DNA of 64,000 nt from Pyrinomonadaceae bacterium (GTDB taxonomy: Bacteria > Acidobacteriota > Blastocatellia > Pyrinomonadales > Pyrinomonadaceae). Under the pieces are notes generated by a model that searched no databases, was not told the origin of the DNA, and saw only the letters and a list, made by a program, of their open reading frames with translations. The DNA lies in the NCBI GenBank assembly GCA_041745765.1, contig JBGTIH010000062.1:595-64594 (forward strand), in the 5' to 3' direction. The position numbers and the translations under genes were made by a program. Positions 4,134 through 60,049 of the stretch are shown piece after piece; position 1 is the stretch's first letter; every line of letters begins with the position of its first letter.

Positions 4134-4161
4134 GGGCTGTTTGTGTAATGAAAGATGCGGT

Positions 4162-9662: not shown

Positions 9663-9825
9663 AACCGGAAGTTTAGCAGAAAAATCCTCATCTTAAAAGC
9701 ATTTAATCGGGCAAAAAGTAACGTCTCAACAAAACTTGCAGATATAATCAGAAAGCCGTCGCAAATTCGTATCCGCTATAATATGAACGAGTAGGCAAGA
9801 CTCTTATATTAAATCGAAGTTTGAT

Positions 9826-12800
9826 TTAAACGGAGATAAAATCCAAAACTTCGCGCGCTCTTTCAATCGGATTTTTTCCGGTTTCGACAACCTGCAAAAT
9901 TCCGCTCTGCGAAAATTTCGACCCTTCGTTTTCTTCTAAAAACTCCATCAATTTTTCCGGCAGAACGCGCGCATTTTCACTGAGTTTGACGGCAAAGCCT
10001 TCTTTTGTTTTATCGATCGAAATAATTCTCATCTGTTCGGCGAGCTTTCTGAGGCGTGCGAATTCAAAGAGATTTTCGACCGAATTCGGCATTTTTCCGT
10101 AGCGGTCCTGGATTTCCGTGTAAATTCTCCGCAGAGTTTCTTCGGAATCGGACGAAGAAATGCGTTTATAAGTTCTAAGTCTTTGGGAAGTTTCGTTGAT
10201 ATAATCGTTCGGAATCGAAACGTCAACGCCGAGGTTGATCGAAACGCTCGATTCGTCTTCGATTTCTTCGCCTTTGAGTTCGGAAATGGTGCGTTCGAGC
10301 ATTTTAGTATAAAGATCAAAACCGAGCGCATCGAGTTGACCGGATTGCTGACCGCCCAAAATATTTCCCGCGCCGCGCAGTTCTAAATCGAGTGCCGCAA
10401 TGCGAAATCCCGCGCCGAGATCGGAAAATTCTCTGATTGCCGAAAGTCTTCGCCGCGCAATCGGCGTTAATTCCAGTTCGCCCGGAATCAAGAGATACGC
10501 GTAAGCCCGCCGGTTCGAACGCCCGACTCGACCGCGAAGCTGGTAAAGCTGCGAAAGCCCGTAATTATCAGCGCGATTGATAATTATCGTATTCGCCCGC
10601 GGAATATCTATGCCGTTTTCGATGATCGTCGTCGCGATCAAAACGTCGTATTTGAAATCAACGAAATCGAGCATAATTTCTTCCAGAATCTTTTCGTTCA
10701 TCTGCCCGTGCGCGAAAACGACACGCGCATTCGGCACGATTTTTTTGATATGCGCACTCATTGCTTCGATCGTTTCGACGCGGTTGTGAATAAAGAAAAC
10801 CTGTCCGTTTCGCGCCAGCTCGAGCTCGATTGCCGATTTGATCACGCCTTCCGAAAACTGCACAACCTGCGTATTGATCGCCAGACGATCGCGCGGCGGA
10901 GTTTCGATCACCGACATATCGCGCATTCCCAAAAGAGACATATTCAAAGTGCGCGGAATCGGCGTTGCGCTCAGAGTTAAAACATCAACTTTTTTCTTCA
11001 GATGCTTTAATTTTTCCTTGTGCGCGACGCCGAATCTTTGTTCTTCATCAACGACGACCAGACCGATTTTCGGGAGTTTCACGTCATTTGACAGAATTCT
11101 GTGCGTTCCGATCAAAACATCAACTTCCGCTTTTTCCGCTTTTTCGACGACTTCCTTTTGCTCTTTTTTTGAACGAAACCGCGATAAAAGCTCGATTTTG
11201 ACGGGAAACGCCGCAAACCTCTGTTTAAAGGTTTCAAAATGCTGGTAAGCGAGAATCGTCGTCGGTGTTAAAACGGCGACCTGTTTGCCGTCCATCACAG
11301 CTTTAAATGCCGCCCGCATCGCAACTTCCGTTTTTCCGTAACCGACATCGCCGATAATCAGGCGGTCCATCGGGACGGCGGTTTGCATATCTTTTTTCGT
11401 GTCTTCAATTGCGCCCGCCTGATCGGTCGTCAATTGATACGGAAACGCATCTTCAAATTCTTCCTGCCACGGCGTATCTCCGGAAAATGCAAAGCCTTGC
11501 ACGAGTTTTCGTTCGGCGTAAAGCCGCAATAATTCGTCCGCCATATCGCGCATCGCGCGTTTGGCTTTTGCCTTTGTTTTCTGCCAGCCCAAACCGCCCA
11601 AACGGTCAAGCGTCGGCTGCGCCGCTTCGCCGGAAGAATATCGCGAAACCAGATCCAGACGTTCGACCGGAACGAAAAGTTTCGAGTTTTCGGCGTAGAT
11701 CAGGAGCATAAACTCGCGGGATACGCCGCCCGTTTCCAACACCTGCAAACCCTCGAAACGCCCGATTCCGTGATCGACGTGAACGACGAAATCACCGGGT
11801 TTCAGGTCGCGGAAATCGGAAACGAAGGCACTTATTTTGGTCTTTGATCGTTGGTCTTTGATCTTTGTTTTTTGAAATTCGGCTTGCGTCGTTTCGCCGA
11901 AAATGTCCGTTTCGGTGAAGATTTTCAGGTTGAACGAGGGAATTTCAAAACCGCCCGACAGATCACCGATTTTAATTTGATCCGGCGGCAAAACAATATC
12001 GTAATCGCGCAAAATATCGGAAAACCTTTCGGCAATGCCGTGCGCTTGAAAAACGAAAAATTGTCCCTCGTTCCTCGTTCCTCGTCCCTCGTCCTTCATT
12101 TCACGAGTAAATTCTTTGACATTTCCGCGATATTTACGCGTCGGGCGCGAGCCGATCTCGAAATCCGAAGATTTTTCGGCGGTCGGGAATAAAAATAAGG
12201 GTCTTTGATCTTTGATCTTTGATCTTTGATCTTCGGAATTTGAGATTTGAGAAAGCGTTTCAGCAATTTGATCTTGAGTTTCTGAATGTTGAAATTCTTC
12301 ATCGGTTTGCGCCGCCGTTTTGCCGAGCGCGCGGAGTTCGATGCGGCTAATTGAATTTAATTTTTCGCGCAAATTCTCGGCGCTTAAAAATAATTCGTCC
12401 GGCTCTAAACCGATCTCGCCCTGTTCGTTGATTTCGGCGTAATGCGTCTCGATAGTTTCGTAAAAAGTTTCGAGCGTTTTTTCGATCATCGCCGGTTCGT
12501 CTAAAACGAAAATACAATCTTTTAGAAAATCAAAAACGCTCGAATTTCGCGGTTTTACAAGCGGAATCAGGAATTCCCAGCCGGAAAAATCTTCGCCTTC
12601 TTCGGCAAATTGGGTGCGGTCGGTCAGATTCCGCACAAATTTCTCGTCCGAGAATCTCTCACGCGCAAAAAACGCCCAATCCTTAAAATCCTGCGCGGAC
12701 GCGGAAAACGGACGCATCGGCACGATGCGGGTTTCTTTCAGCTGGCTGATTGAAAGCTGCGATTCGGCATCGAACTCTCTGATCGAATCAACCGTGTCGC

Positions 12801-13488
12801 CGAAAAACTCGATTCGCACCGGATATTCCGCGTCCGGCGACCAAACATCGATTATTCCGCCGCGCAGAGAAAATTCGCCGATATTTTTGATCGGTTCTTC
12901 GCGGACATAACCGGAAGAGGCGAGCTTTTCCAACAATTCGTCGGGTGGAAAATCCTCGTCGCGTTTCAAAACCGCGCCTAGTTTCTGCATTTCTGCGGGC
13001 GAAAGCGTTTTGGTAATCAGGGATTTTGCCGAAGTTACGACAAAATCCGTCTGACCGAAAGACAAATTCCAGAGCGTCAGTGCGCGTTTTTCCAGCGTTT
13101 CGGCGTGCGGCGAAATTCCGGCGTAAACGTCCGTTTCCATCGAAGGCAAAGTTTCGATTTTGGATTTTGGATTTTGGATTTTGGATTGATTTTCTCTTGA
13201 ACTTTGAACTTTGGACTTTGAACTTTGAACCGAATCTTGCCAGAAAATCAAATCTGATTCCCACGTTTCGATCTCTTCATTTGAGTCGGCGACGATGACG
13301 AAAGTCTTATTTGTATCGCTTTGAAGTTTTGATAATACAAAGGCTTTGGCGGCGATCGAGGTTAAACCGCTCAGCGAAATTACGCGCGTGCCGCGCTTTA
13401 TTTCGTCGCGTAAGTGTTTTAATTCATCGGTTGTTTCGGATGCAGAATTCATTTCAATAATTTTAGAGAAAATTTCAGGAAGTTGCAC
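9826..13488 (-). CDS. mfd: Transcription-repair coupling factor Mfd
   Basis: 1220 aa. It has the RNAP-interacting block (GDFVVHVDHGIGRFEGL), an SF2 translocase with Walker A (GDVGYGKTEVAMRAA) and DEEQRFG, and a TRG region. The start is either the GTG at 13488 or the ATG at 13452. Four low-complexity inserts are encoded by heptamer repeats. Confidence 0.95.
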   Translation of the reverse strand: MQLPEIFSKIIEMNSASETTDELKHLRDEIKRGTRVISLSGLTSIAAKAFVLSKLQSDTNKTFVIVADSNEEIETWESDLIFWQDSVQSSKSKVQSSRENQSKIQNPKSKIETLPSMETDVYAGISPHAETLEKRALTLWNLSFGQTDFVVTSAKSLITKTLSPAEMQKLGAVLKRDEDFPPDELLEKLASSGYVREEPIKNIGEFSLRGGIIDVWSPDAEYPVRIEFFGDTVDSIREFDAESQLSISQLKETRIVPMRPFSASAQDFKDWAFFARERFSDEKFVRNLTDRTQFAEEGEDFSGWEFLIPLVKPRNSSVFDFLKDCIFVLDEPAMIEKTLETFYETIETHYAEINEQGEIGLEPDELFLSAENLREKLNSISRIELRALGKTAAQTDEEFQHSETQDQIAETLSQISNSEDQRSKIKDQRPLFLFPTAEKSSDFEIGSRPTRKYRGNVKEFTREMKDEGRGTRNEGQFFVFQAHGIAERFSDILRDYDIVLPPDQIKIGDLSGGFEIPSFNLKIFTETDIFGETTQAEFQKTKIKDQRSKTKISAFVSDFRDLKPGDFVVHVDHGIGRFEGLQVLETGGVSREFMLLIYAENSKLFVPVERLDLVSRYSSGEAAQPTLDRLGGLGWQKTKAKAKRAMRDMADELLRLYAERKLVQGFAFSGDTPWQEEFEDAFPYQLTTDQAGAIEDTKKDMQTAVPMDRLIIGDVGYGKTEVAMRAAFKAVMDGKQVAVLTPTTILAYQHFETFKQRFAAFPVKIELLSRFRSKKEQKEVVEKAEKAEVDVLIGTHRILSNDVKLPKIGLVVVDEEQRFGVAHKEKLKHLKKKVDVLTLSATPIPRTLNMSLLGMRDMSVIETPPRDRLAINTQVVQFSEGVIKSAIELELARNGQVFFIHNRVETIEAMSAHIKKIVPNARVVFAHGQMNEKILEEIMLDFVDFKYDVLIATTIIENGIDIPRANTIIINRADNYGLSQLYQLRGRVGRSNRRAYAYLLIPGELELTPIARRRLSAIREFSDLGAGFRIAALDLELRGAGNILGGQQSGQLDALGFDLYTKMLERTISELKGEEIEDESSVSINLGVDVSIPNDYINETSQRLRTYKRISSSDSEETLRRIYTEIQDRYGKMPNSVENLFEFARLRKLAEQMRIISIDKTKEGFAVKLSENARVLPEKLMEFLEENEGSKFSQSGILQVVETGKNPIERAREVLDFISV
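11839..11870. repeat. Tandem GGTCTTTGATC(G/T)TT x2 (2x7-nt period) inside mfd
   Basis: Read directly from the sequence. It is translated as KTKIKDQRSKTKI. Confidence 0.8.
12064..12098. repeat. Heptamer array T(C/T)CCTCG x4-5 inside mfd
   Basis: tccctcg ttcctcg ttcctcg tccctcg tccttca, translated as KDEGRGTRNEGQ. Confidence 0.8.
12202..12251. repeat. Heptamer arrays TCTTTGA x4 then ATTTGAG x2 inside mfd
   Basis: Read directly from the sequence. It is translated as ...SQISNSEDQRSKIKDQRP... Confidence 0.85.
13156..13231. repeat. Two adjacent heptamer arrays (GATTTTG x4, TTGAACT x5) inside mfd
   Basis: Read directly from the sequence. It is translated as VQSSKSKVQSSRENQSKIQNPKSKI. Confidence 0.85.
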
Positions 13489-13497
13489 ATAGAGAAA

Positions 13498-13557
13498 CAG
13501 AAAATGAAAAATGGAAAATATATTCGTTAAATTTATAAATTTTCATTTTTCATTTGC
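13498..13557. repeat. Heptamer-word hairpin (GAAAATG/AAAAATG arms) in the mfd-lysS divergent spacer
   Basis: cagaaaatgaaaaatggaaaat ... attttcatttttcatttgc, with complementary arms. Confidence 0.65.
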
Positions 13558-13814
13558 AGAAGAATTCTTCCTTTTCAAGTTCGGCAAATTGCCGAACTTA
13601 CGCGCTCTCGCTTATACTTTTTCTTTATATAATCTAAATTGCCAGTTATGAAAATTTAGGACACTTTGCCCGCGAAATACGCGAAAACACGCGAAAAAAG
13701 GAATAAAGTTAATTGTTTTTGTCTTTTTTTTAGCGCATTTCGCGTATTTCGCAGGCAATTTCTCCAAAATGTTGATGACTGAAAACTTGGGATATATAAA
13801 TCGAAGAAAAAATT

Positions 13815-15767
13815 ATGAAAATTGCATCATTTGACGAAATTATCGAACCGAACGATCAGACCGAAGCGCGGCGCGTTCATCTGGAAAAATTGCGGACGTT
13901 GGTCGGAAATGTTTATCCGAATAAATTTGAACGCTCGAAAGTTTCCGGTGAGGAAGACACGATCACGAATCTCGTAAAATTCGCGCCCGTTGCGGAAATT
14001 GTCAGGCAATTAAAGGACAACACGCCCGAAGGCGCGAAACCGGATCAGGAATTAAAGGCAAAACTCAACGAAAAATTAAATGAATTCGGCAGCGTCAGAA
14101 TTTCGGGAAGATTGGCGGTTCCGCCGCGCGTGATGGGCAAAGCCGCGTTCGTACACCTCAGCGACGGCGTTAAGCGTCTGCAAATCTATGTTCGCAAAGA
14201 CGATGCGAAAGGGATTTACAACGGGTCAGACCCGTCTGCGGTAGCGGGCGGTTTAACGTCTGCTTCGGAAAGCTCGAAAAATAATCTTCAACCATCCGCT
14301 ACCGCAGATGGTTCTGACCTGAGCGGTTGGGAACTTTTCGGCTTTCTCGATCACGGCGATTTTATCGGCGCGGAAGGTTTTTTGTTTTTGACGAATACGG
14401 GCGAATTGTCGGTTCACGTTGAAACGATTCAATTTTTATCAAAAGCACTTCTTCCGATGCCGGACAAGATGCACGGAATTGCCGATCCCGAATTGCAGCG
14501 CAGGTTTCGTTATGCCGATCTGATCGCGTCGAGTTTGCAGATCGAACACGAAGGTTTAACGACGCGCGAGGTTTTCGAACGCCGCGCCAAACTTATCAGC
14601 GGAATGCGGCAGTTTCTCGATTCGCACGGCTACATCGAAGTCGAAACGCCGATGCTCACGCCGAAAGCGACAGGCGCGGCGGCGACTCCGTTTGAAACGC
14701 ATCACAACGCGCTCGATATTCCTCTATACGCGCGAATCGCGCCCGAACTTTACTGAAAAAGATTAACGGTCGGCGGTTTTGAAAAGGTTTACGAACTCAA
14801 CCGCAATTTTCGCAATGAAGGTTTGTCGCACAAACACAATCCCGAATTCACGATGCTGGAATTCTACTGCGCTTATATGGATGTCAACGGGATGATGGAT
14901 TTCGCCGAAGCGATGATTAAAGAATCGGTACAGAAAGCGACGGGCGGAAGTTTGGTTGTAAATTACGACGGTAGAGAGATTGATTTTTCAAAGTTTAAAA
15001 GATTGTCAATGATTGATGCCATAATCTCAAAAATGCCTAATTTATTAAAATGGGCAAGCCTTATTAAGGACAGAGACGAGTCAAGTCCTCTAAACTCGAA
15101 AGTGAAAGAACAATTTAATCCTAAAATGATTTTTGAATTATGGACATTGTTTGAAGAATATGCTCATGAAGACAAAGAAATTGTTTTAGAAGACGAACAT
15201 AAAGATTGTAGTGAAGGACACAAAAAATTCCAAGCATTTGAAGAAAAAGTTCTCGAAACTAAAAAGAAATATGAAGGAATTGAAATAACTTCAGCGGAAT
15301 CTGATAAAGACGTATTGGCTTTATTTGAAGATTTTGTTGAAGGAAACTTAATCCAACCAACCTTCATCATTGATTACCCGAAATCAATTTCGCCCTTGTC
15401 GAAAGCGTCGCCGGAGAATCCGCAGATTGCCGAGCGGTTCGAGCTTTTTATCAACGGAATGGAATGCGCCAACGGATTTTCGGAACTCAACGATCCGCAG
15501 GAACAGTATGCGAGATTCATTGACCAGATGAAAGAGCGCGAATCGGGCGACGCGGAAGCGATGGTTTTGGACGAAGATTATATTCGCGCGCTCGCTTACG
15601 GAATGCCGCCGGCGGCGGGAATCGGCATCGGAATCGACCGTTTGGTGATGTTGCTGACAAACAAACATTCGATTCGTGATGTAATATTATTTCCGCATAT
15701 GCGTCCGGTTTCCAGAGAAGAAGAAAGCGAAAATGATTCTGAAGAGGAAAATCAGGACGAGAAATGA
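13815..15767 (+). CDS. lysS: Lysine--tRNA ligase, class II. The reading frame is interrupted by one in-frame TGA (14754-14756), so the ORF track shows two halves.
   Basis: Both ORFs (13815-14756 and 14823-15767) are in the same frame. The sequence across the stop reads ...[45 protein letters not shown], which is the conserved class II LysRS motif region. Downstream motifs are also present ([31 protein letters not shown]). Confidence 0.9.
14224..14320. repeat. Palindromic dispersed element, copy A (inside lysS, translated in frame)
   Basis: GGTCAGACCCGTCTGCGGTAGCGGGCGGTT-36 nt-AACCATCCGCTACCGCAGATGGTTCTGACC. The arms recur at 51683-51788. Confidence 0.85.
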
Positions 15768-16490: not shown

Positions 16491-16559
16491 GTTTGAGTCC
16501 CGCCTTTAGGCGGCAAAGCGCAGCGGATGCCGCCTAAAAGCGGGACTCCAAACTTTTTT
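16491..16559 (+). terminator. Long GC-rich terminator hairpin
   Basis: GTTTGAGTCCCGCCTTTAGGCGGCA...TGCCGCCTAAAAGCGGGACTCCAAAC followed by TTTTTT. Confidence 0.7.
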
Positions 16560-16657: not shown

Positions 16658-18187
16658 ATGGAAAACGAAGTTCAGGAAAGCGAAAAAATCGAAAATGTGC
16701 GCGTTTTGCGGCTGTGGCAGATGATCTTTCTCGGCAAGGGAACGCTTGTGCGCCAGCTTATTCACGCCATTATCAGCGTCGCGCTTCGTTTGTTTTTCCG
16801 GCGGATCGAAGCGGTCAATGCCGAAAACGTGCCGCCGGAAGGCGCGATTATTTTCGTGCTAAATCATCCGAACGGCTTGGTTGATCCCGCGCTCGTTTTT
16901 GTTTCGCTCATCCGGCGCGTTTCGTTTCTTGCCAAATCCACGCTTTTCGATATTCCGGTCGCCGGATTTTTGCTGCGGACATTCGAGATTTTGCCCGTTG
17001 CGCGGCGCGTTGATTCGGCGGGCGATATGTCGAAAAACCGGATGACGTTTCAGAATTGTTTTGACCTGCTCGTCAAAGGACGCTGCATCGCCATTTTTCC
17101 CGAAGGAATCTCGCACAACGAAACAAAGCTCCAGCCCTTAAAAACCGGCGCGGCACGCATCGCGCTCGGCGCACTCGGATTTACGGAAGAAGAAGAGAAA
17201 GAAAAATTTCAGATTTCAGAAAATGAAGAAACAAATGACGAAGGACAAAGGTCAAAGGACGAAACCAATCCAAAATCCAAAATCCAAAATCTAAAATTAA
17301 AAGTCATGGCTGTCGGGCTTTATTACACTTCAAAAACGTCTTTTCGGAGCGAGGCTTTGATTCGTTACGGCGATCTGATCGAAGTCGAGCCGGTTGAATT
17401 AGACGAAAACGGCGAACCGCCGCGCGAAGCCGTCTATGCGCTGAACGCGAAGATCGAAGACGCTTTGCGAAAAGTAACGCTCAATCTCGAATCGCAAAGC
17501 GAACTCGACACCGTTCTCAAAGCTGAAGCGTTGTTTTCGTCCGTTTACGAAAATCTTTTGTTTAAAGACACGCTGACGCAGAGTTTTAACCGTTTGCAAT
17601 CGCTCGCCGAAAAATACGCGCTTTTGGAAAAAAACGATCCGCAGAAAATGAGCGAACTCGGCGAAAAGGTAACGCGCTACGAAAACGCCCTGAAAACGAG
17701 CGGCGTCACGGCGGAGAGTCTTTCGGTTCTGCATCATCCGACATCTTATGTGTTTCGCTATTTAATCTTGCGCGTCCTGTTTTTGCTGATTCTCGCGCCG
17801 CTTGCCGTCATCGGCGCGATCATTCATTCGCCCGCTTATTTTTTCTCAAATCTTCTGGGGCGCACCGTGACGACGCACGACGTAGATGCTGCCGGTTCTT
17901 CGTCTAAAATAATTGCCGCGATGATCTTTATGCCGCTAACGTGGCTGATAGTTGCGCTTGTTATACTTTTTTTTTTCGGCTGGCAGCTTGCGCTTATTTC
18001 GATTCCGGCGACGATTTTGTGCGGTTATATCGCGCTTCGTTCGTCGGAAACGTTGATTGATCTGAACGTCTGGATAAAATCGGCGTGGCTTCTTTTTCGC
18101 CAGCGTGCGCTCTTTCTTCGATTACTCGTCCGGCGCAAATCTTTGCAGGAAGAGATCGGCGATATTATCGAAAAAGACGAGAGATGA
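16658..18187 (+). CDS. PlsC-family acyltransferase with a C-terminal membrane domain
   Basis: HX4D motif (VLNHPNGLVDP) and FPEGISH motif, with C-terminal TM helices. The ATG at 16658 is preferred over the TTG at 16646. Confidence 0.8.
   Translation: MENEVQESEKIENVRVLRLWQMIFLGKGTLVRQLIHAIISVALRLFFRRIEAVNAENVPPEGAIIFVLNHPNGLVDPALVFVSLIRRVSFLAKSTLFDIPVAGFLLRTFEILPVARRVDSAGDMSKNRMTFQNCFDLLVKGRCIAIFPEGISHNETKLQPLKTGAARIALGALGFTEEEEKEKFQISENEETNDEGQRSKDETNPKSKIQNLKLKVMAVGLYYTSKTSFRSEALIRYGDLIEVEPVELDENGEPPREAVYALNAKIEDALRKVTLNLESQSELDTVLKAEALFSSVYENLLFKDTLTQSFNRLQSLAEKYALLEKNDPQKMSELGEKVTRYENALKTSGVTAESLSVLHHPTSYVFRYLILRVLFLLILAPLAVIGAIIHSPAYFFSNLLGRTVTTHDVDAAGSSSKIIAAMIFMPLTWLIVALVILFFFGWQLALISIPATILCGYIALRSSETLIDLNVWIKSAWLLFRQRALFLRLLVRRKSLQEEIGDIIEKDER
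17243..17305. repeat. Heptamer arrays (CAAAGGN x2, AAAATCC x3-4) inside the acyltransferase gene
   Basis: ggacaaag gtcaaag gacgaaa ccaatcc aaaatcc aaaatcc aaaatct aaaatta, translated as GQRSKDETNPKSKIQNLKLK. Confidence 0.8.
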
Positions 18188-22214: not shown

Positions 22215-22256
22215 ATAAATAAAAAACCGCAACTGAACAAAAACAGTTGCGGTTTT
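22215..22256 (-). terminator. Rho-independent terminator of the 22311-22751 gene
   Basis: On the minus strand, AAAACCGCAACTG-loop-CAGTTGCGGTTTT followed by TTTTTTATTT. Confidence 0.75.
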
Positions 22257-22310
22257 CCGTTTACGGATAATTCGAGCATTGCAATAATATATTGCTTCTT
22301 TACATTTCTT

Positions 22311-25057: not shown

Positions 25058-26617
25058 TCAAATCTCGACTTCGTCAATCTGCGCCTTTTGCAGTTTGCCC
25101 GAATAATCTATGTAGAGCGATTTCCATTCTGTGAAAATATCGAGAACCTGCGTTCCGGCTTCGCGGTGTCCGTTGCCTGTTCCCTTTGTGCCGCCGAAAG
25201 GCAGATGAACTTCCGCGCCGATGGTTGCCGAATTGACGTAGCAGATTCCGGTGTAGAGTTCCTGCATCGCGTAGAATGATTGATTGACGTCCTGTGTGTA
25301 GATTGCCGAACTCAAGCCGTATTTCACGTCGTTGACAATATCTATCGCTTCGTCGAGAGTTTCAAATTGGATAACGACCGTGACAGGTCCGAAAATTTCT
25401 TCCTGCGCGATGCGGTCGTTGCGTTTGACGTTGGTGAAAACGGTCGGTTCGATAAAAAAGCCGTTTTTGTAAATGCCTTTGGTCAGACGGTTTCCACCGC
25501 ACGCCAAAGTTGCTTTGTCTTCTGTTTTGCCGATTTCGATATAATTTAAAATCTTGTCCATCGCGGCTTCGTTAATTACCGGACCGACTTCCGTTTTCTC
25601 GTCCAAACCGTTGCCGACGCGCAATTTCTTCGCTTTTTCGACCAGTTTTTCGCAGAATTTTTTATAAACTTTTTTGTGAACGACTAATCTTGAGGAAGCC
25701 GTGCAACGCTGTCCGCTCGTGCCGAACGCGCCCCACAGCGAGCCTTCGACGGCGTTGTCAATATCGGCATCGTCCATCACGATGATCGCGTTTTTGCCGC
25801 CCATTTCGAGTGACACGATCTTGTTGTCGCGCGCGCATTGTTCGGCGATAATTCTGCCTACATCGGTCGAACCTGTGAACGAAATCAAACGCACATCTTC
25901 GTGTTTAACCAACGCTTCGCCGGATTCGGCAAAACCGTTGACGACGTTAATCACGCCCGCCGGAATTCCGGCTTCTTCGCACGCTTTGACTAAATTTATC
26001 GTCGAAAGGGGAACGTCTTCGCCCGATTTAATGACAACCGTATTGCCGCAAACGAGCGCGGGAATCAATTTCCAGCTCGGAATCGCCATCGGAAAATTAA
26101 ACGGCGTGATCAAACCGCAGATGCCGACGGGCTGGCGCACACACATCGCAAATTTGTTCGGCATTTCCGCCGGAGTCGTAAAACCGTGCAGTCGTCTGCC
26201 TTCGCCCGCCGTGTAATATGTACAATCAATCGCTTCCTGCACGTCGCCGCCTGCTTCCTTTAAAACCTTGCCCATCTCGCGCGTCATATCGCGGGTAAAT
26301 TGCTCTTTATTTTTTTCGAGAATTTGCGCCAGACGAAATAAAATTTCCGCACGTTTCGGCGCGGGCGTTCTGCGCCAGCGCGTTGCCGCATTTTTTGCCG
26401 CTTCGACCGCCTTGTCAACATCTTCGGCATTCGAAGCCGGAAAACGCCCGATGATGTCGGTCGTGTCTGCCGGATTGACGTTATCAAACCATTCGCCCGA
26501 AGAAGATTTTACCCATTCGCCGCCGATATAATTATGATAAGTCGCGATTTTTGTTTTAGTTGTTTTTGTCGTTTTCGATTTTTTCGTTGTTTTTTTCGCT
26601 TCTTTTGCTTTTGCCAT
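25058..26617 (-). CDS. Aldehyde dehydrogenase family protein with a Lys/Thr-rich N-terminal tail
   Basis: ...YIGGEW..., catalytic EMGGKN and ...GQRCTA... motifs, 519 aa. Confidence 0.9.
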
Positions 26618-26630
26618 ATTTAAAAAAATT

Positions 26631-26716
26631 AAGTTTCAAATTTCAAGTTACGAGTTCCAAGTTAAAAAATTACTTGGAACTCGTAACTTGAAACTTGGAA
26701 CTTTGAACTTTGAACT
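26631..26716. repeat. Heptamer-word hairpin (AAGTTNC / ACTTGNA arms)
   Basis: caagttacgagttccaagt-taaaaaatt-acttggaactcgtaacttg, flanked by further 7-nt words. Confidence 0.75.
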
Positions 26717-26722
26717 GTTAAA

Positions 26723-29363: not shown

Positions 29364-29412
29364 AAATTATTTATTAGTGATGTTTCAGAATTTAAGCAAA
29401 GGAAAAATACTT

Positions 29413-29504
29413 TCGGAATAAGTGAAAAGTGAAAGGTAAATAGTGATAGATGATTCTTCGATAAAACCTATCATTTATCACTTATCACCTTTTACTTATT
29501 CCGA
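29413..29504. repeat. Heptamer-word hairpin (AAGTGAA/TAGTGAT arms)
   Basis: tcggaataagtgaaaagtgaaaggtaaatagtgatagatga ... tatcatttatcacttatcaccttttacttattccga. Confidence 0.75.
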
Positions 29505-29543
29505 AATGTAAAAGCCTAAAAAACTTCGTTCCGCATAAATCCT

Positions 29544-30515
29544 TTATTTAACGAAATAAACCTTCAGATCGCGTTCGCTCGTGATTTTCCATCCGGCGCC
29601 CGTATTTCGGAGTTTTAACTGCGTCTGAACCTTACCTTCCGAAGTTTTCTCGAAATTCTGAAAAACCCACGCTTTATCAAAAACGGCGGTTGCCGTTTCG
29701 CCCGTTTTGTCGGGCGTAATGCTTAGATTGCTGAAATTCATTTTTATCGAATCATACTGCGTAAAGGCTTTCTGCTTATCGTTTCGGACAAAACTTTTGG
29801 CGGCGTTTTTCTTATTGTAATAATCGAGATTTTCGTCATAGCTTTCCATATAAGCATTTAAGTTGCGCGATTCCGCCAGAGATTTCCACGAATAAATCCG
29901 GTCGGAAACCTGTTTTTTAACTTCTTCCGCATCGAAATTCGGCGGCGGAGTTGCGGTTTTAACAGGCATTTGCGCGGCGTTGGAATCTTTTTTGGTCGGC
30001 GCGGGAGTCGGCGAATCTTTTTCGGCATCATCATCTTTTGAGATTATTTTTTCATCGCTGTTTGGTTTAGTATTCGTGTTTGCGGCGATTTCATTTCGAT
30101 CTTTCGAGAAATAAAACCACCACGCGCCGATTCCGGCAACGCCGAAAAGAATGAGCATAACGAGCGCGGTCGTTAAAACCGCGACTAAAGCATTCGATTT
30201 CTGCGGCGGCATGGGCGACGCGGGATATGAAGCAATCTGTGTTTCGCGGCTTTTTTCCCAATTTTCGGCGGACGATTCCGGCACGTTAACCCGCATTTGA
30301 CGGGCATCTTTGTTAGTCGTAAAACGATTGGTCGGCTCGTTTGCAAAAAACTGTTCGGTTACTTCGTCTTCTGTCGTTTGTCCGCTTTGCCCGAAAGCGA
30401 GCGTCGGCGTTTCTGTGTGTGAATCTGCGCTCCCGACCAACGACGTTCCATCCTGCAGACAGAATTTCAGCGTGTCATCGGCATAACTCGAACGGCACTT
30501 CGGACAATGTTTCAT
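29544..30515 (-). CDS. Zinc-ribbon membrane protein with a C-terminal extracytoplasmic domain (hypothetical)
   Basis: MKHCPKCRS...FCLQDG zinc ribbon, one TM helix (ALVAVLTTALVMLILFGVAGIGAWWFYF), and a C-terminal ~130-aa globular domain. Confidence 0.6.
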   Translation of the reverse strand: MKHCPKCRSSYADDTLKFCLQDGTSLVGSADSHTETPTLAFGQSGQTTEDEVTEQFFANEPTNRFTTNKDARQMRVNVPESSAENWEKSRETQIASYPASPMPPQKSNALVAVLTTALVMLILFGVAGIGAWWFYFSKDRNEIAANTNTKPNSDEKIISKDDDAEKDSPTPAPTKKDSNAAQMPVKTATPPPNFDAEEVKKQVSDRIYSWKSLAESRNLNAYMESYDENLDYYNKKNAAKSFVRNDKQKAFTQYDSIKMNFSNLSITPDKTGETATAVFDKAWVFQNFEKTSEGKVQTQLKLRNTGAGWKITSERDLKVYFVK

Positions 30516-32336: not shown

Positions 32337-32359
32337 CCGGAAACAAAAAAAATACGAAA

Positions 32360-32399
32360 AAATGAGAAGTGAAAAATTTTAACATTTCACTTCTCATTT
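32360..32399. terminator. Bidirectional terminator hairpin between convergent genes
   Basis: Perfect 15-bp stem AAATGAGAAGTGAAA-10 nt-TTTCACTTCTCATTT with A/T-rich flanks. Confidence 0.7.
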
Positions 32400-32411
32400 C
32401 TTATTTCTCAC

Positions 32412-35234: not shown

Positions 35235-36005
35235 TTATAAATAAAATAAACTCAGCCGCGGAATTTCGCGTTCATCCCGAAGTTTTTTAAGAAGCATCAG
35301 CTTAAATGTCCGCTCATAAACTTCTCTTTCCATTTTTGTCTGATAATCGGCGATTTTCTTTGACGTTTCAGCTTTTAATTTTTCGGTAACGAATGATTTT
35401 AATAAAATTTCGTCAATTGAAGCGTCCAATTTTTCGAGATTTTCCTCGAGTTTTTCAGCCGAAAGTTTTTTGTTTTTCAGCTGATTCAAACTTTCCGAAA
35501 CTTTTTCCAAAATTTTCTTCAAATCGCCGACGGCATTTTCGGCGGCGAAATCCAATCCGGCGGAAATTGTTTGAAGATGTTCGGCAATCGTTTCATCGGA
35601 AAACAACTCGTTTTTCGGATGATTTTCTTGGCTTTTATCCGGCGTTTTAATCTCCGTTTTGCCGTTTTTCCCGATTTGCGATTCGAGCCATTCGGCGTAT
35701 TGCGCTTCGATTTCTTCTTTGCAATACGACAGAGATTTGATCGTCCGGCGTTTGTTCGGATTTTTATCGTAAGCATCGAAAACATTTTCGATGCCGCGCA
35801 AAATAATATGAAGCGGCACGCCGCGCTCTTGCCACGTTTCGATCAAAGCCCAATCCAGAGGATTTAAAAGCAAATTGCGCCCGCGCCGGCGGATAAAAGC
35901 TTCTTCGATTTCGGAAAAATAGTTAAAGTAATTCAATGGTGAATGGTGAACGGTGAATGGTGAATTATAAATTGGTTTTTTTATTAACCATTCATCATTC
36001 CCCAT
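35235..36005 (-). CDS. Hypothetical protein with a C-terminal coiled coil
   Basis: 256-aa ORF. The first ~24 codons are encoded by the hairpin repeat at 35934-36014, so the true start may be the TTG at 35936. Confidence 0.55.
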   Translation of the reverse strand: MGNDEWLIKKPIYNSPFTVHHSPLNYFNYFSEIEEAFIRRRGRNLLLNPLDWALIETWQERGVPLHIILRGIENVFDAYDKNPNKRRTIKSLSYCKEEIEAQYAEWLESQIGKNGKTEIKTPDKSQENHPKNELFSDETIAEHLQTISAGLDFAAENAVGDLKKILEKVSESLNQLKNKKLSAEKLEENLEKLDASIDEILLKSFVTEKLKAETSKKIADYQTKMEREVYERTFKLMLLKKLRDEREIPRLSLFYL

Positions 36006-36014
36006 TCACCATTA
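35934..36014. repeat. Heptamer-word hairpin (AATGGTG arms)
   Basis: caatggtgaatggtgaacggtgaatggtgaatt ... aaccattcatcattccccattcaccattaatc. Confidence 0.75.
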
Positions 36015-36015
36015 A

Positions 36016-36273
36016 TCAAAATTTTATCTTCATTCGGCGCAGAGTTCGCAGGTCTTCGTCAGTTAAATCGAGTTCGATTTCTTCGTGAAAATCTTCCGAT
36101 TCATTATCAATTTCCTGCAGACCGATCTCGAGCCGGAGCATCAGATTCGGTTCATAACCGAGACCGCGCAAATACTCTATCGCGTCCGCCACGCGTTCGG
36201 AATTTTCGATTGCCTTATTGATCGCTTCGCCGAGTTCGCGCACGGCTCTTTGTGCATTTTTATCGAGTTCCAT
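36016..36273 (-). CDS. Small acidic hypothetical protein
   Basis: 85-aa ORF with no motif recognised. Confidence 0.5.
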   Translation of the reverse strand: MELDKNAQRAVRELGEAINKAIENSERVADAIEYLRGLGYEPNLMLRLEIGLQEIDNESEDFHEEIELDLTDEDLRTLRRMKIKF

Positions 36274-36322: not shown

Positions 36323-36455
36323 AAAAGTTCAAAGTTTAGAGTTCAAAGTTCAGAGTTATCGTTTAGAATAGCATTGCTTATAATTTTGCATTTCAAAAAA
36401 CATTTGCTTTAAAGTATAACCAAACCTTGAACATTAAACTTTGAACTTTGAACTT
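36323..36455. repeat. Long-loop heptamer-word inverted repeat (AAGTTCA arms) in a divergent spacer
   Basis: aaaagttcaaagtttagagttcaaagttcagagtt ...65 nt... aaccttgaacattaaactttgaactttgaactt. Confidence 0.7.
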
Positions 36456-41131: not shown

Positions 41132-41703
41132 AATTTCTCCCTTTGTTCGTAATTTGTTCAAGATTTCCATTACAATACATTCGAGCTTTTCATACTGTGT
41201 GCTGTCATACATAAGAAAGTTTTTTTTGATAAAACTTAACCTTTCTTTAAATTCCTTTGCAGCATAAATCCAACTAAAATAAACAGTCAGAGCTTATGTT
41301 TAATAAAATAACAAGTCCTGAATCTTTATTTTAAGATTTCTCGTTTTGTTTACTATTTTACAGATTAATCGGAAAAGTTTCCGGCAGCTGATCTATTTGA
41401 CAAGGAAATTAAAGTCATAAATACAAAAAAATTTATTTACTTACGATAAGTTCAGCGCAGTTTGAATAAAGAAATGTACTCAAATGATTTAAGAATTTCG
41501 TTTTAACAATTTCGGAATGACTAATTTCAAAATCTTAAAAAGGCTTTTATCGAATATGATTTCCCAAAAACGTATCGGAACAATACGGCTTGAATGTGTG
41601 TTCCAGCTACAAAATTATTTAACATCCTTATTTTTCAGTAGTAGCGGGATTTTATTTTTTTCGGCACGTCTATTGCGGTAATAGTTTACAAGAGGAAAAA
41701 AGA

Positions 41704-41913
41704 ATGGCACAAGAAACATCAAATGAAGAAAGAGCTGCGGAAAAATCTTTTAATGAATCACCGAAAACTATAAATAAAGCGACTACGGTAATGGTAATCG
41801 GGGGAATTATATTGTTGATTATTGCTACGGTAATGCTCTTGTCTTTTTGTCGAAATGACACAAACACAGGAAATTCCACTACTCCAGCCGCAACTAACAG
41901 GGCTTCACCGTAA
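41704..41913 (+). CDS. Possible small single-TM protein
   Basis: 69-aa ORF with SD-like AGAGGAAAAAAGA before the ATG and one hydrophobic helix. It lies in an AT-rich, gene-poor stretch. Confidence 0.35.
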   Translation: MAQETSNEERAAEKSFNESPKTINKATTVMVIGGIILLIIATVMLLSFCRNDTNTGNSTTPAATNRASP

Positions 41914-42146
41914 GTTTTTGTAAGAAAAAATACTGATTGTCTGTTTAAGCAAAGAGAGTCTTCATGATTTATGCAAATCTGAATAAATCGGAATTATTAC
42001 AAATCAGTAGATTAAATTAAGTCTGACGGCAAATTATTGCCGTGTCGCGCTCGAAGAATGCTTAGGGGTTTTATTATATTAGATTTTGGCTAATCTCAAA
42101 CTCGAACGATTAATATTCATTCCTACTCTTTAATCAATTTAGATGA

Positions 42147-42261
42147 TTAGGTCTTTGGCTTTCGGTCTTTAATTTTTGCTCTGATATTTAGAGTTTCGTT
42201 TCAAAAATCAGTTGCTTTTTATTAAAATGACTTTTGCAAAGACCAAAAGCTAAAGTTCTAA
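42147..42261. repeat. Long-loop heptamer-word inverted repeat
   Basis: ttaggtctttggctttcggtctttaa ...63 nt... gcaaagaccaaaagctaaagttctaa. Confidence 0.55.
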
Positions 42262-42332
42262 TCAGCTATAAATCAATTTTCGTAATCCAGATCAGGCGAA
42301 AGCTTTTTGACGATTTGATTTAAGAAAAACTC

Positions 42333-42379
42333 AATGCTATTGTTTCATAGATGAAACAATAGCATTAAACAATAGCATT
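42333..42379 (+). promoter_or_regulatory. Perfect 34-bp palindrome plus a third direct half-site, 20 nt upstream of the Rad52-like gene (operator or RNA switch candidate)
   Basis: AATGCTATTGTTTCAT-AG-ATGAAACAATAGCATT followed immediately by AAACAATAGCATT. Confidence 0.55.
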
Positions 42380-42399
42380 AAAAAAGGCAGGAAACTAAC

Positions 42400-44676: not shown

Positions 44677-45762
44677 ATGAGAAAGAAAATCGGAATCGGA
44701 ATAATCGGAACGGGATTTGCGCGAAAGGTGCAGATTCCGGCGTTTCAAAATCTTGCAAATGCCGAAATCATTTCAATCGCCAGCCGACAATTAAAAAACG
44801 CTGAAGATGCGGCAAGCGATTTTGACATCGCGCATTTTACGGATGATTGGCGGGAAACCGTTGAACGTGAAGATGTTGAACTGGTTTGCATTACCACACC
44901 GCCCGACACTCATTTTGAAATGGCACTTGCCTCAATCGAACTCGGCAAGCACGTTTTGTGCGAAAAACCGATGGCGTTTGATGTGGCACAAGCGCAAAAA
45001 ATGACCGAAGCGGCGCACAAAAAAAATGTTCTGGCATTAATTGATCACGAACTACGCTTTTTAAACGGCAGACAAAAAGCCTTTAATTTATTGCGCGAAG
45101 ATAAAATCGGCAAAATCTTTCACTGCAAATATTTTTTTAACAACGCAACCCGCGGAAACGCTGATTTGCCCTGGAGTTGGTGGTCAAGCGTGGAAAGCGG
45201 AGGCGGCACTCTGGGCGCAATCGGTTCACATGCGATTGACACTTTGCGATGGTTTCTCGGCGCGGAAATCGCCGAAGTTTTCTGCCATCTGCACACCAAT
45301 ATTAAGCAAAGACCGGATGCGGAAACCGGCGAAAAGCGCGAAGTTACGAGCGACGACGAAGCATTAATGATTTTGAAATTTGCCGAAAGCGATCTGCTCG
45401 AAGAAGCAACGGCAAATGTTTCGCTCTCAATGGTCGAAGCCGGAAATTATCGTAACTGCGTGGAATTTTTCGGGACAAAAGGCGCAATCCGCATTGAAGA
45501 CAACGGCGAAATTTTCTTTACCGATATCAGCGAAAACATCTGGCAAGAAATTAAGGTCGAATTAGGCGAAGTTGTGCCGAAAACACCGCAAAACGGCTGG
45601 TCGCGCGGTTTTGCGGCGTTCTCTCACAAAATCATCAATGCCATTTCGGCAGGAAAAACCGAAATTAAATATGCCGCCACTTTCAAAGATGGTCTGGAAG
45701 TTCAAAAAGTTTTAGATGCCGCGCGGAAATCCGATGAAACAGGCTGTTTGATAAAAATCTAA
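44677..45762 (+). CDS. Gfo/Idh/MocA-family oxidoreductase
   Basis: N-terminal Rossmann IGIGIIGTGFA and EKP motif (VLCEKPMA), 361 aa. Confidence 0.85.
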   Translation: MRKKIGIGIIGTGFARKVQIPAFQNLANAEIISIASRQLKNAEDAASDFDIAHFTDDWRETVEREDVELVCITTPPDTHFEMALASIELGKHVLCEKPMAFDVAQAQKMTEAAHKKNVLALIDHELRFLNGRQKAFNLLREDKIGKIFHCKYFFNNATRGNADLPWSWWSSVESGGGTLGAIGSHAIDTLRWFLGAEIAEVFCHLHTNIKQRPDAETGEKREVTSDDEALMILKFAESDLLEEATANVSLSMVEAGNYRNCVEFFGTKGAIRIEDNGEIFFTDISENIWQEIKVELGEVVPKTPQNGWSRGFAAFSHKIINAISAGKTEIKYAATFKDGLEVQKVLDAARKSDETGCLIKI

Positions 45763-45811
45763 AAATCATTTCAGATTCCAAATTCCAAATCTGAAATCTG
45801 AAATGATTTTT
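45761..45811. terminator. Heptamer-word hairpin acting as a bidirectional terminator
   Basis: aaaaatcatttcagatt-ccaaattccaa-atctgaaatctgaaatgattttt, between convergent genes. Confidence 0.7.
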
Positions 45812-45825
45812 AGATTTAAATTATT

Positions 45826-46273: not shown

Positions 46274-47239
46274 TCAATCACCCAAAAATTTATCGGGAAT
46301 CAGATAATTCTGCACATAATCGGCGACGGATTCGTGTAAAGACATTATTTTTTTGTCGTAGCCGGTTTCACGAATTCGTGTCAAATCGGCTTGCGTGTGA
46401 TATTGATAACGATCCCTTAAATGTTCGGGCATTTCAACGAATTCGATTGCGGGCGGCAGATCGAGCGCGTTAAAAATCGCTTTAGCAAGTTCGTTCCAGG
46501 TGTGCATTTCGCCCGAGCCGACGTTGAACAAACCGCCGATTTTATTTTCTATAAAATGCAGAGTCATTTCCGTAACGTCTTTCACATAAACAAAATCGCG
46601 GCCGAATTCGCCGTCTTGATAATCGGGATTCGCGCTTTTGAAAAGCTGTAATTTCCCCGTGTCGCGAATCTGCGCAAAGGCTTTGTTGATGAGCGAACGC
46701 ATATCTTCTTTATGGTTTTCATTCGGTCCGAAAACATTGAAATATTTCAGCCCGATGATTTCTTTTAATAATCCGGTGCGATGCGCGTAAAGATCGAAAA
46801 GATGTTTCGAGTAGCCGTAGACATTGAGCGGGCGAAGCTTTTCAAGGTTTTCCGTGCCGTCTTCCATTCCTTGTTCACCGTCGCCGTAAGTCGCCGCGCT
46901 CGATGCGTAAATAAAGCGTTTGCCGTTTGAAACAGACCAATTAGCGAGCGTTTTCGTAAATTCGTAATTATTCCGCATCATAAAATTAGCGTCGCGCTCA
47001 GTCGTCGCCGAACACGCGCCTAGATGCAGAATAATTTCGGCTTTATTATGCTGTTCTAGATTCGCAATAAAATCGTCCGCGTCCAAATAATCCGCAAACT
47101 TTAACGGCGCAAGATTTTTCCATTTGTCCGAAGAATCCAGCCGGTCAACGATCAAAATATCCGTTTCGCCCAATTGATTAAGCCGCCAAACAAGCGCACT
47201 TCCAATAAATCCCGCGCCGCCGGTAACAATAATTTTCAT
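46274..47239 (-). CDS. hldD: ADP-L-glycero-D-manno-heptose 6-epimerase
   Basis: MKIIVTGGAGFIGSA..., ...HLGACS.TTE...MM.NNY... and ...YASSAATYG... track E. coli RfaD closely. Confidence 0.85.
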   Translation of the reverse strand: MKIIVTGGAGFIGSALVWRLNQLGETDILIVDRLDSSDKWKNLAPLKFADYLDADDFIANLEQHNKAEIILHLGACSATTERDANFMMRNNYEFTKTLANWSVSNGKRFIYASSAATYGDGEQGMEDGTENLEKLRPLNVYGYSKHLFDLYAHRTGLLKEIIGLKYFNVFGPNENHKEDMRSLINKAFAQIRDTGKLQLFKSANPDYQDGEFGRDFVYVKDVTEMTLHFIENKIGGLFNVGSGEMHTWNELAKAIFNALDLPPAIEFVEMPEHLRDRYQYHTQADLTRIRETGYDKKIMSLHESVADYVQNYLIPDKFLGD

Positions 47240-47313
47240 AATGGAAAATAGAAAATGAAAAATGGAATTTGTTTCTGATTATAATTTAACACTTATCCGT
47301 TTTCCATTTTTCG
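47240..47313. repeat. Heptamer-word hairpin (AATGGAA/AATAGAA arms)
   Basis: aatggaaaatagaaaatgaaaaatggaa ... tccgttttccatttttcg. Confidence 0.6.
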
Positions 47314-47322
47314 TTAAATAAA

Positions 47323-49027: not shown

Positions 49028-49216
49028 TTTCCACGCCGACGGAATTCGCCAGGCGTGCAGTTTTGTCCCGCGAACAGGCGGACCGCCCGTTAATGCAAGT
49101 TCTCAGAATTTTTCCCAACGTCCGCGCCAACGACTCATTTTGTTTGAAGCTCCTTTATTTAATTTCTTAGAAACTGTTTTAAAACTCAATTGAATGACAA
49201 TGTGTAAGGAGAGAAT

Positions 49217-60045: not shown

Positions 60046-60049
60046 ATAT

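Follow-up and report, generated by a model that had tools for sequence, protein, structure and literature searches.

Why do the intergenic spacers of a bacterial genome carry long hairpins whose arms are built from tandem 7-nt words, when the word changes from spacer to spacer and the period does not? The question is raised by a 64,000-nt stretch of DNA from a soil-type Pyrinomonadaceae bacterium (Acidobacteriota), in the following called the window, which holds 53 open reading frames (ORFs) and 7.6 kb of non-coding DNA. An earlier note on this DNA had listed eight inverted repeats with heptamer arms and one direct array, and had suggested a common generating mechanism. One of the inverted repeats, at 26631-26716, separates the genes for an HtrA-like protease and an aldehyde dehydrogenase (Aldedh) and is the focal element here. 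We found that the heptamer arrays are real and highly non-random. We interpret them as lineage-specific heptanucleotide microsatellites, similar to the short tandemly repeated repetitive (STRR) sequences of cyanobacteria, that are made by slippage, whose paired arms co-evolve and which in spacers are probably kept as terminator-like or intercistronic stem-loops. As a whole, we hold this reading to be probable, though by no means secure; its mutational half is well supported, and the functional half is what we infer.

The 7-nt period stood out in all scans. Exact period-7 runs numbered 10, compared with 0.1 in shuffled sequences (an approximately 100-fold excess), and exact runs of the remaining periods were at or near chance (period 6: 4 versus 0.8 in shuffles). 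A mismatch-tolerant scan of periods 4 to 12 returned nine period-7 arrays against 0.1 in shuffles, and none or one for each other period. Tandem Repeats Finder (TRF) called 25 non-redundant arrays of period 7 and six of period 14 in the 64 kb, but only four each of periods 6 and 8. The expectation that a 7-nt period is commoner than 6 or 8 therefore survived all three approaches. The arrays are also concentrated where the earlier note had looked for them, with 2.48 per kb of non-coding DNA versus 0.21 per kb of coding DNA in the window, a 12-fold difference. Fifteen of 19 intergenic arrays, and none of 12 coding arrays, have an inverted partner at most 200 nt away. The paired arrays yield A/U-rich stems of 20-35 bp with 22-31% G+C.

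The focal element shows this design most clearly:

26631-26716, minus strand: focal hairpin, filling the 105-nt spacer from the stop codon of the HtrA-like protease gene (26723) to the Aldedh ATG (26617)

On the minus strand, which is the sense of both genes, the HtrA TAA is followed by 6 nt, six heptamers, a 9-nt loop, four complementary heptamers, AATTTTTTTAAAT and the Aldedh ATG. The arms consist of AGTTCAA-type heptamers, six units on the stop side and four in the opposite arm, and the inner 26 bp pair perfectly, followed by AAUUUUUUU. The unit variants AGTTACG, AGTTCCA and AGTTTCA are mirrored exactly between the arms, and the surplus units lengthen one arm only. The RNA fold reached -43.9 kcal/mol, compared with a mean of -13.4 for dinucleotide shuffles (z = -10.6), and none of 200 shuffles was as stable. 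Mononucleotide shuffles of the region 26625-26722 gave z-scores of -11 to -13 at a folding free energy (dG) of -44.

To see what is kept at this position, we compared relatives. The HtrA-like protein matched metagenome-assembled genomes (MAGs) of Pyrinomonadales, Pyrinomonadaceae and Blastocatellaceae at 62-85% identity. We counted those fetched loci (labeled L001 and so on) in which the Aldedh start lies approximately 80-310 nt after HtrA, yielding seven relatives. All seven carry a heptamer-armed hairpin in the HtrA-Aldedh spacer. In six of them it fills the spacer as in the window, starting 3-11 nt past the stop codon and ending 4-23 nt before the ATG; L001 has a 310-nt spacer with the hairpin after the HtrA stop and a separate hairpin of 8-nt period. 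The words at this site are as follows:

Window, L011 and L015: AGTTCAA
L012: AGTCCCA
L013 and L014: AGTAGAG
L005: TCGTGAA
L001: GTTAATT

The seven relatives thus use five different words. The spacers of six relatives and of the window folded at -29 to -57 kcal/mol with none of 200 shuffles as stable, and that of L001 was folded without shuffles. At the focal spacer, position, hairpin shape and 7-nt period have been kept over deep divergence, while the sequence has not. Where the gene pair is rearranged, heptamers do not follow HtrA: the two genes lie 1.4 kb apart in L003, and downstream of HtrA, L004 and L006 lack an Aldedh match. All three are free of heptamers there, and L003 and L004 have an ordinary GC-rich terminator after HtrA. 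Two further observations concern the Aldedh gene itself. Its start region (26551-26593) encodes a Lys/Thr-rich low-complexity tail by means of a period-9 array, and its first 20 nt (ATGGCAAAAGCAAAAGAAGC) are near-invariant among relatives at 62-85% protein identity.

The excess of period 7 was found in relatives as well, but not in two Clostridium control loci or in a high-GC distant locus. In two complete Pyrinomonadaceae genomes, the ENA contigs ERZ25071726 ctg274516 of 4.07 Mb and ERZ26165376 ctg355685 of 4.81 Mb, heptamer hairpins fill the clpP-clpX spacer and further spacers. In contrast, the Pyrinomonadaceae locus L021 (GCA_026129865.1) is essentially array-free over 24 kb. An assembly artefact is ruled out, since the features recur in independent assemblies from NCBI, ENA and JGI, including megabase contigs. 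A search of the whole window against Rfam at the gathering threshold gave no match, and exact-protein look-ups with the 85-aa ORF, Aldedh and HtrA found no strain variants of the window on record.

All nine loci listed earlier were confirmed, with strong hairpins at 26631, 45761, 35934, 29413 and 32360, weaker ones at 13498, 63451 and 47240, and the AATCGCA direct array. The intergenic elements other than the focal one are listed below, with strength given as RNA fold and z against mononucleotide shuffles; elements without an assigned strand are marked unstranded:

13498-13557, unstranded: GAAAATG/CATTTTC hairpin in a divergent spacer, lying 46-103 nt ahead of the mfd start (13452); dG -14, z -4
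29411-29506, minus strand: AAGTGAA/TAGTGAT hairpin, 38 nt past the stop of the gene at 29544-30515; folded 29405-29512, dG -37/-40, z -8
32360-32410, unstranded: hairpin separating two convergent genes, with a U-run on each strand; folded 32355-32411, dG -18/-21, z -6.5
35935-36013, minus strand: AATGGTG/CACCATT hairpin from the stop of the 85-aa ORF (36016) to a likely TTG start (35936); folded 35930-36018, dG -36, z -9
36324-36455, unstranded: arms of AAGTTCA/TGAACTT on either side of the centre of a divergent spacer, with 65 nt between them; not in the earlier list
45755-45817, unstranded: hairpin between convergent genes, overlapping the stop codon at 45762, with central heptamers ATTCCAA and ATCTGAA; folded 45750-45822, dG -27/-35, z -10 to -12
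47240-47313, minus strand: AATGGAA array with a weak inverted partner, filling the 83-nt spacer from the stop at 47323 to the ATG at 47239; folded 47238-47318, dG -13, z -2
49214-49319, minus strand: CTATCAA/TAGTTGA hairpin with a 14-nt super-period in a 377-nt tandem spacer; dG -41/-32; not in the earlier list
63467-63532, unstranded: AATGGTG x3.6, AATGATA x2, then ATTTTCC x2.4, an imperfect hairpin filling a convergent spacer; folded 63462-63537, dG -16, z -2.5
2927-2950, unstranded: direct AATCGCA x3.4 array without inverted partner
60051-60213, minus strand: similarly built hairpin, here of 8-nt period (AAAAGTTT/AAAAGTGA), filling the spacer from the stop at 60212 to the ATG at 60045; not in the earlier list
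13624-13800, unstranded: inverted arms of 63 nt with a 9-10-nt period (CGCGAAAAC), shortly before the gene start at 13815; not in the earlier list

Conservation of these elements differs from site to site. The hairpin at 36324-36455, whose mutase-side arm stops 8 nt short of the methylmalonyl-CoA mutase ATG, is kept with the same word in L001 (positions 40-171). The hairpin at 32360-32410 resembles a bidirectional terminator; in this convergent spacer (32337-32411), L003 retains the hairpin of the window, whereas L001 has an AACGGAT/TTTTCCG heptamer hairpin instead, the same pattern as at the focal spacer. The hairpin at 13498-13557 is absent upstream of mfd in L009 and L010, and a hairpin related to the one at 13624-13800 was found upstream of mfd in L009. 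The overlap of the hairpin at 35934-36014 with a predicted start codon, pointed out in the earlier note, is probably due to an ORF predicted too long: L001 does not conserve the amino acids that the hairpin would encode, and a conserved TTG comes after the hairpin.

How such arrays change can be read from close pairs of loci. L013 and L014 are 96% identical over 2.1 kb, and their alignment has a sole gap, where two units (14 nt) have been inserted into the 3′ arm of the focal-spacer hairpin. The inserted CTTTACT units of L014 complement AGTAAAG, a new variant of AGTAGAG in its 5′ arm. The orthologue of the 35935-36013 hairpin in L001 has one unit more than that of the window; here AATGGTG has become AAGGGTG across three units of one arm, and CACCATT has become CATCATT across three units of the other. 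Unit slippage and homogenisation are seen directly in these changes, and the polymorphism in unit number that the earlier note had thought worth checking is present both as an indel and as a unit gain.

Template switching between the arms, offered in that note beside slippage, is compatible with the mirrored variants of the focal hairpin, with the complementary change in L014 and with a lack of G.U asymmetry, which falls short of proof. For 17 hairpins in one-directional contexts, the summed folds were -621 kcal/mol for the sense and -626 kcal/mol for the antisense strand, with few G.U pairs. Equal folds on both strands imply that the complementarity is of the Watson-Crick type and kept at the DNA level. 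Quasi-palindrome correction is an established mechanism of this kind in E. coli. Selection for pairing could explain mirrored arms too.

The arrays are not restricted to spacers. Two genes of the window carry heptamer arrays in frame, none of them in the earlier list:

13152-13230, minus strand: two adjacent mfd arrays, GTTCAAA x4.9 and ATCCAAA x5.1, encoding VQSSKSKVQSSRENQSKIQNPKSKIET
12202-12252, minus strand: mfd linker array, GATCAAA
12063-12094, minus strand: mfd linker array, GGACGAG
11836-11875, minus strand: mfd linker array, CAAAGAY
17206-17297, plus strand: three arrays in an acyltransferase gene, after the catalytic acyltransferase domain, encoding KFQISENEETNDEGQRSKDETNPKSKIQNLKL

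The four array sites of mfd (9826-13452, minus strand) are all in frame with the A-rich strand as sense; (GTTCAAA)5(ATCCAAA)5, for instance, translates to VQSSKSKVQSS...KSKIQNPKSKI. Searches with Mfd yielded more than 100 Pyrinomonadaceae orthologues, and in an alignment of 40 of these proteins the array sites appeared as hypervariable insertions. The inserted peptides are evident heptamer translations (KSKIQNP, FQISNSK, WKMENGK, WRVESGE, KTKDQRP). Where the window has GGACGAG, L009 and L010 have GAACAAC with register and length unchanged. At the site of 13152-13230, L010 has an additional ACAGTGG x4.4 array, a 36-nt block. Neighbouring words grade unit by unit, from GTGGACA through ATGGACA and ATGAAAA to TCCGAAA in the mfd of L010, and from GTTCAAA through GTCCAAA to ATCCAAA in that of the window. 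The insertion at 13152-13230 is missing from two orthologues, P0004 and P0010, the latter encoded in L021, which therefore has neither intergenic arrays nor this linker. Separately, P0010 contains a large tandem repeat with a unit of approximately 40 residues, adding approximately 130 residues in the D3 linker region. A synteny search for the acyltransferase arrays in the first relative loci gave no match.

Coding and intergenic arrays have a size mode of 4-5 units and several words in common. Together with the lack of intergenic arrays and of the 13152-13230 linker in L021, this points to one generating process, with selection sorting the survivors by place. The slippage-type mechanism proposed earlier for all loci fits the L013/L014 indel, the concerted word changes in mfd and in single arms, and the case of L021. 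The earlier view that terminator function alone cannot account for the arrays also stands, given two hairpins in divergent spacers and nine in-frame arrays in two genes.

Many loci with many words share the strict 7-nt period, as the earlier note had it, and 41 distinct canonical words occur among 63 arrays. Its further statement that each locus uses a different word does not hold, because AAGTTCA recurs at three loci of the window and AATGGTG, AAATCCA, AAAATGG and AAATCTG at two each. AAGTTCA, the commonest word, occupies at least four unrelated, non-orthologous loci in several genomes. The lengths of period-7 arrays are bimodally distributed, with a background of two copies and a separate peak at 28-35 nt, that is, 4-5 units. 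Hardly any array exceeds 36 nt, be it in coding or in non-coding DNA, in the window or in 11 related loci. For periods 6, 8 and 9, lengths plainly decay without such a peak.

These observations show, or strongly indicate, that arrays arise in place and are reshaped there by slippage of replication in steps of 7 nt. Units are gained, lost and homogenised, so that the word drifts or is swapped while the period stays, and arrays settle at 4-5 units (28-35 nt). What survives would then depend on selection. In spacers, arrays would persist almost solely as inverted pairs whose two arms co-evolve, through selection for pairing or through arm-to-arm template switching of the quasi-palindrome type. 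Coding DNA would retain arrays only in frame and with the A-rich strand as sense, where they encode hydrophilic, hypervariable linkers with a 7-residue period.

What the hairpins may do in spacers is suggested by where they lie. Nine of the 11 window hairpins start at most 40 nt past a stop codon, and the remaining two are those in divergent spacers. Four of six hairpins in tandem spacers reach from stop to start, and the next start codon is often merely 0-15 nt downstream of the hairpin. Canonical terminators with a GC-rich stem and U-run occur in other spacers (approximately 2730-2770, 4087-4141, 16492-16551 and 22216-22263), the first of them in the spacer that also holds the direct array at 2927-2950. 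Among the 3′-end spacers of the window, GC-rich terminators and heptamer hairpins were never found in the same spacer. A U-run 3′ of the stem is present at 26631, on both strands at 32360 and 45755, and in L001, L005, L011 and L015. Of 27 hairpins, 10 have a purine-rich 5′ arm (≥0.65) and one has a pyrimidine-rich 5′ arm; as a universal polarity this was rejected, and it is a tendency towards purines in the 5′ arm and pyrimidines in the 3′ arm, with exceptions. A consensus promoter and terminator scan returned 46 terminator-like sites against 36 expected, but it demands GC-rich stems and is hence uninformative on heptamer hairpins. The A/U-rich stem-loops would thus occupy the place that GC-rich intrinsic terminators take elsewhere. 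They most likely act as bidirectional or partial terminators, as attenuators, or as intercistronic elements for the stability or processing of mRNA 3′ ends. Duplexes of 20-35 bp would also be substrates of RNase III.

Several points weigh against this reading, and they fall on both of its halves. On the mutational side, simple slippage predicts decaying lengths and not a peak at 28-35 nt, and the slippage account gives no reason for a step of 7 nt. There are also hints of copying between loci in the recurring words and in one 8-nt-period element at non-orthologous positions. The approximately 40-nt arms of this element (60046-60216) are about 80% identical to those at L001 11660-11850, while the centres are unrelated; this pair is the best hint that some elements are copied between loci. 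Whole hairpins or array blocks of approximately 30 nt might thus have been inserted or copied between loci instead of growing in place, in the manner of miniature inverted-repeat transposable elements (MITEs) or REP sequences, or by templated insertion during repair. The sharp size mode with hardly anything longer, the spread of AAGTTCA over non-orthologous loci and the 36-nt block gained in the mfd of L010 agree with such an origin, as do spacers of close relatives that appear replaced whole, with no residual similarity. However, 41 words in 63 arrays leave no dispersed consensus, loops and flanks are unrelated, and neither target-site duplications nor terminal inverted repeats were seen beyond the arrays themselves. 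A Pfam scan of 50 of the 53 window ORFs revealed no transposase or RAYT. The unit-by-unit grading of neighbouring words fits change in place, and the strain difference between L013 and L014 is a two-unit step and not a block. We consider an insertional or mobile origin quite unlikely.

On the functional side, it is position and shape that suggest a terminator or processing role. At 35935, as in L012 and L013, the U-run is weak or missing; in general, the 3′ arm is itself T-rich, which blurs the assessment of U-runs. The stems are not short and GC-rich but longer and more A/U-rich than those of canonical terminators, and from each of the two divergent spacers, a transcript would hold one arm only. 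In L001, the arms of the 35935 orthologue have diverged independently, spoiling the pairing. Moreover, the G.U asymmetry in favour of the sense strand that is the usual trace of selection at the RNA level was not found in the 17 hairpins analysed. Alternatively, the arrays and their inverted copies might be neutral debris, by-products of a slippage and template-switch bias that persist where they are harmless, mainly in spacers. The equal stability of sense and antisense folds, the independent decay of arms, the presence of hairpins in divergent spacers and the fast turnover of words all fit, and ordinary terminators suffice in relatives with a rearranged or far longer spacer. In addition, no function has been found for the heptamer repeats of Xanthomonas and Nostoc (PMC4692102). 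Against neutrality, all seven relatives keep a highly stable hairpin at 62-85% protein identity despite the change in sequence, and most intergenic arrays (15 of 19) are paired. Hairpins and canonical terminators also occupy separate spacers, and purine-rich 5′ arms outnumber pyrimidine-rich ones 10 to 1 among 27 hairpins. On this evidence, we regard purely neutral persistence as unlikely, and we favour hairpins made by slippage and retained as stem-loops.

Could the constant period instead reflect a protein that reads the DNA or RNA in a 7-nt register, as the earlier note had also suggested? The arrays would then be binding sites for a protein each monomer of which covers 7 nt. A cold-shock-domain protein, for instance, might tune termination or translation by melting or stabilising the hairpin. 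The period is constant while the words vary, and after optimal rotation the words of 39 arrays from the window and relatives share a loose register, T-S-R-N-A-A-N (3.83 bits versus 3.02 +/- 0.13 in a letter-shuffled null). CspB binds one heptanucleotide per molecule (PMC1904285), the idea has already been raised for TAACTGA repeats (PMC4679880), and pyrimidine-rich arms lie directly upstream of several starts without a Shine-Dalgarno motif. Most genes of the window lack this motif anyway, however, and in closeness to the CspB consensus GTCTTTG/T the words do not surpass letter-shuffled ones (4.18 versus 4.15). The variety of 41 words speaks against sequence-specific recognition, arrays of equal size and with the same words lie in coding DNA, where no such role is expected, and hairpins of 8-nt and 9-10-nt period exist too. 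We thus found no evidence for a register-reading protein and consider it the least probable of the explanations discussed here. A recognisable Shine-Dalgarno motif precedes approximately 15 of the 53 ORFs, and most starts follow A/T-rich sequence. A hairpin that replaces the missing motif by re-initiation or a "shunt" was rejected, because the absence of the motif after hairpins is unremarkable with so few genes having one; it is kept as a reading of low probability.

A more far-reaching version of the preferred stem-loop reading would regard the stop-hairpin-start modules as a maintained regulatory device peculiar to Pyrinomonadaceae, in which slippage and template switching renew a tunable stem between co-transcribed genes (HtrA-Aldedh, clpP-clpX and others). 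We judge this to be very unlikely. If true, unit number would control the share of transcription or translation that reaches the downstream gene: the transcript might be partly terminated, its 20-35 bp duplex might be cut by RNase III, or translation might re-initiate across a stem that joins stop and start. Every gene pair of this kind would act as a "rheostat" that switches slowly. As a corollary, the perfect heptamer arrays within mfd would make this evolvability factor frameshift-prone.

Other features of the window and its relatives were noticed as well. A second, unrelated repeat family, GC-rich and palindromic with the termini GTCAGAACC...GGTTCTGAC, is present at 14224-14319 and 51683-51787. 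One copy lies in frame in a class II aminoacyl-tRNA synthetase gene and adds approximately 30 residues that are absent from the orthologue in L020, an insertion that resembles the Rickettsia palindromic elements. A 50-bp perfect palindrome with the same termini is found in L005 (approximately 9790-9865). The tRNA synthetase gene of the Asp/Lys/Asn family (13815-15767) is broken into two ORFs by an in-frame stop (14754-14756) where the orthologue in L020 encodes Leu (APELYLKRL versus APELY*KRL in the window); a sequencing error, a pseudogene or recoding could be the cause. Between a holin-like/DUF3618 gene cluster and a Rad52/22-family gene, 1.2 kb (41213-42399) lack any ORF of at least 70 aa and contain a perfect hairpin of 19 bp with a U-run behind it (42329-42370), as well as a tandem repeat of 13 nt (42354-42382). 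This stretch may be a prophage remnant.

Several known identities were rejected for the heptamer hairpins. Integron attC sites, which are variable hairpins between tandem genes, are ruled out by the housekeeping genes with conserved synteny, by the lack of GTTRRRY cores and by hairpins in convergent and divergent spacers. G-quadruplexes, which need four or more tracts of at least 3 G, are ruled out because the A/T-rich words have no G-tracts, GG or GGG occurring only in GGACGAG within the coding region of mfd. A REP/REPIN or MITE consensus is likewise missing from this diversity of words, and a single 8-nt-period element is common to two loci.

Which known repeats do the arrays then resemble? 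Mazel et al. reportedly described cyanobacterial STRR words such as CCCCAGT in 1990. Tandem heptanucleotides were reported in Calothrix in the same year, as cited in PMC4692102, and an excess of heptanucleotide long simple sequence repeats (SSRs) in many prokaryotes, with polymerase slippage as the proposed cause, was described by Mrazek et al. 2007, as related in PMC4679880 and PMC4692102. The Pyrinomonadaceae arrays belong with these long SSRs, a class that the earlier note does not mention: they have at least three head-to-tail 7-nt copies, an excess of this period over other unit sizes, a mostly intergenic location, and unit numbers and sequences that vary between relatives. They share with the STRR sequences of heterocystous cyanobacteria (Calothrix, Anabaena/Nostoc) and with heptanucleotide long SSRs the use of several words per genome, the variation in length and sequence among close relatives at the same gene pair, and slippage as the proposed origin. 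They differ in the phylum, in their A/T-rich words, in inverted pairs being the rule (15 of 19), in the filling of spacers from stop to start and in the in-frame arrays within housekeeping genes. They are not STRR1-3 in the strict cyanobacterial sense, as the host belongs to Pyrinomonadales and none of the 41 words is an STRR word.

Two better described heptamer families are instructive. Rehm et al. (PMC4692102) reported G-rich arrays, GGGAATC and GGGGA(C/T)T, in Xanthomonas and Nostoc. Like ours, these lie mostly beside ORF ends, prefer four units, include some inverted pairs and occur at the same gene pairs in related species with variation in length and sequence. They form, however, a single G-quadruplex-capable word family, and the preference for four units was ascribed to the quadruplex. 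Since the Pyrinomonadaceae arrays have a mode of 4-5 units without G-runs, this explanation of unit number cannot be general. MacGregor (PMC4679880) described TAACTGA direct repeats of 2-6 units in marine Beggiatoaceae, some cyanobacteria and Bacteroidetes, which are intergenic, often directly upstream of starts and occasionally within ORFs in translatable orientation. There, one word dominates and 169 direct sets face one inverted set, in contrast to dozens of words and mostly inverted pairs in Pyrinomonadaceae.

Among elements defined by structure, REP/BIME and REPIN sequences of Proteobacteria are likewise intergenic palindromes at gene 3′ ends and between cistrons. REP/BIME have been credited with stabilising mRNA, with attenuation and with protein binding. 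By analogy, they may be the closest functional counterpart without being members of the same family: REPs have a GC-rich consensus dispersed genome-wide and are mobilised by RAYT, whereas heptamer hairpins have site-specific words and internally periodic arms. With Rho-independent terminators, the hairpins share the position just past stop codons, an A-rich 5′/U-rich 3′ polarity and, as far as the T-rich 3′ arm allows it to be told, in many cases a U-run. The usual terminator stem is GC-rich and 5-14 bp long, however, while heptamer stems measure 20-35 bp, some lack a U-run and some lie in divergent spacers.

The comparison has several consequences. Because the structure is constant over seven loci with five words, selection can be separated from mutation, and this pattern can be traced through the family; because array-rich lineages can be set against at least one seemingly array-free close relative, correlation with gene content could be used to search for the responsible replication or repair factor. 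On the practical side, the arrays lengthen ORF calls, put low-complexity linkers into conserved proteins such as Mfd and may mislead assemblies and annotations. Heptanucleotide repeats have been known from cyanobacteria since 1990 and were recognised in 2007 as the commonest class of long SSRs in many bacteria, and our literature search found no report of them in Acidobacteria. The Pyrinomonadaceae thus provide an independent case in another phylum, open to dense comparison of MAGs and complete genomes. The arrays differ from the systems above in their phylum, in having many words rich in A/T, in the prevalence of inverted pairs, in a geometry that runs from stop through hairpin to start and in a 4-5-unit mode without G-tracts, as well as in the concerted evolution seen here and in arrays that encode linkers of a conserved protein. 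Of these, the prevalence of hairpins and the size peak are new details.

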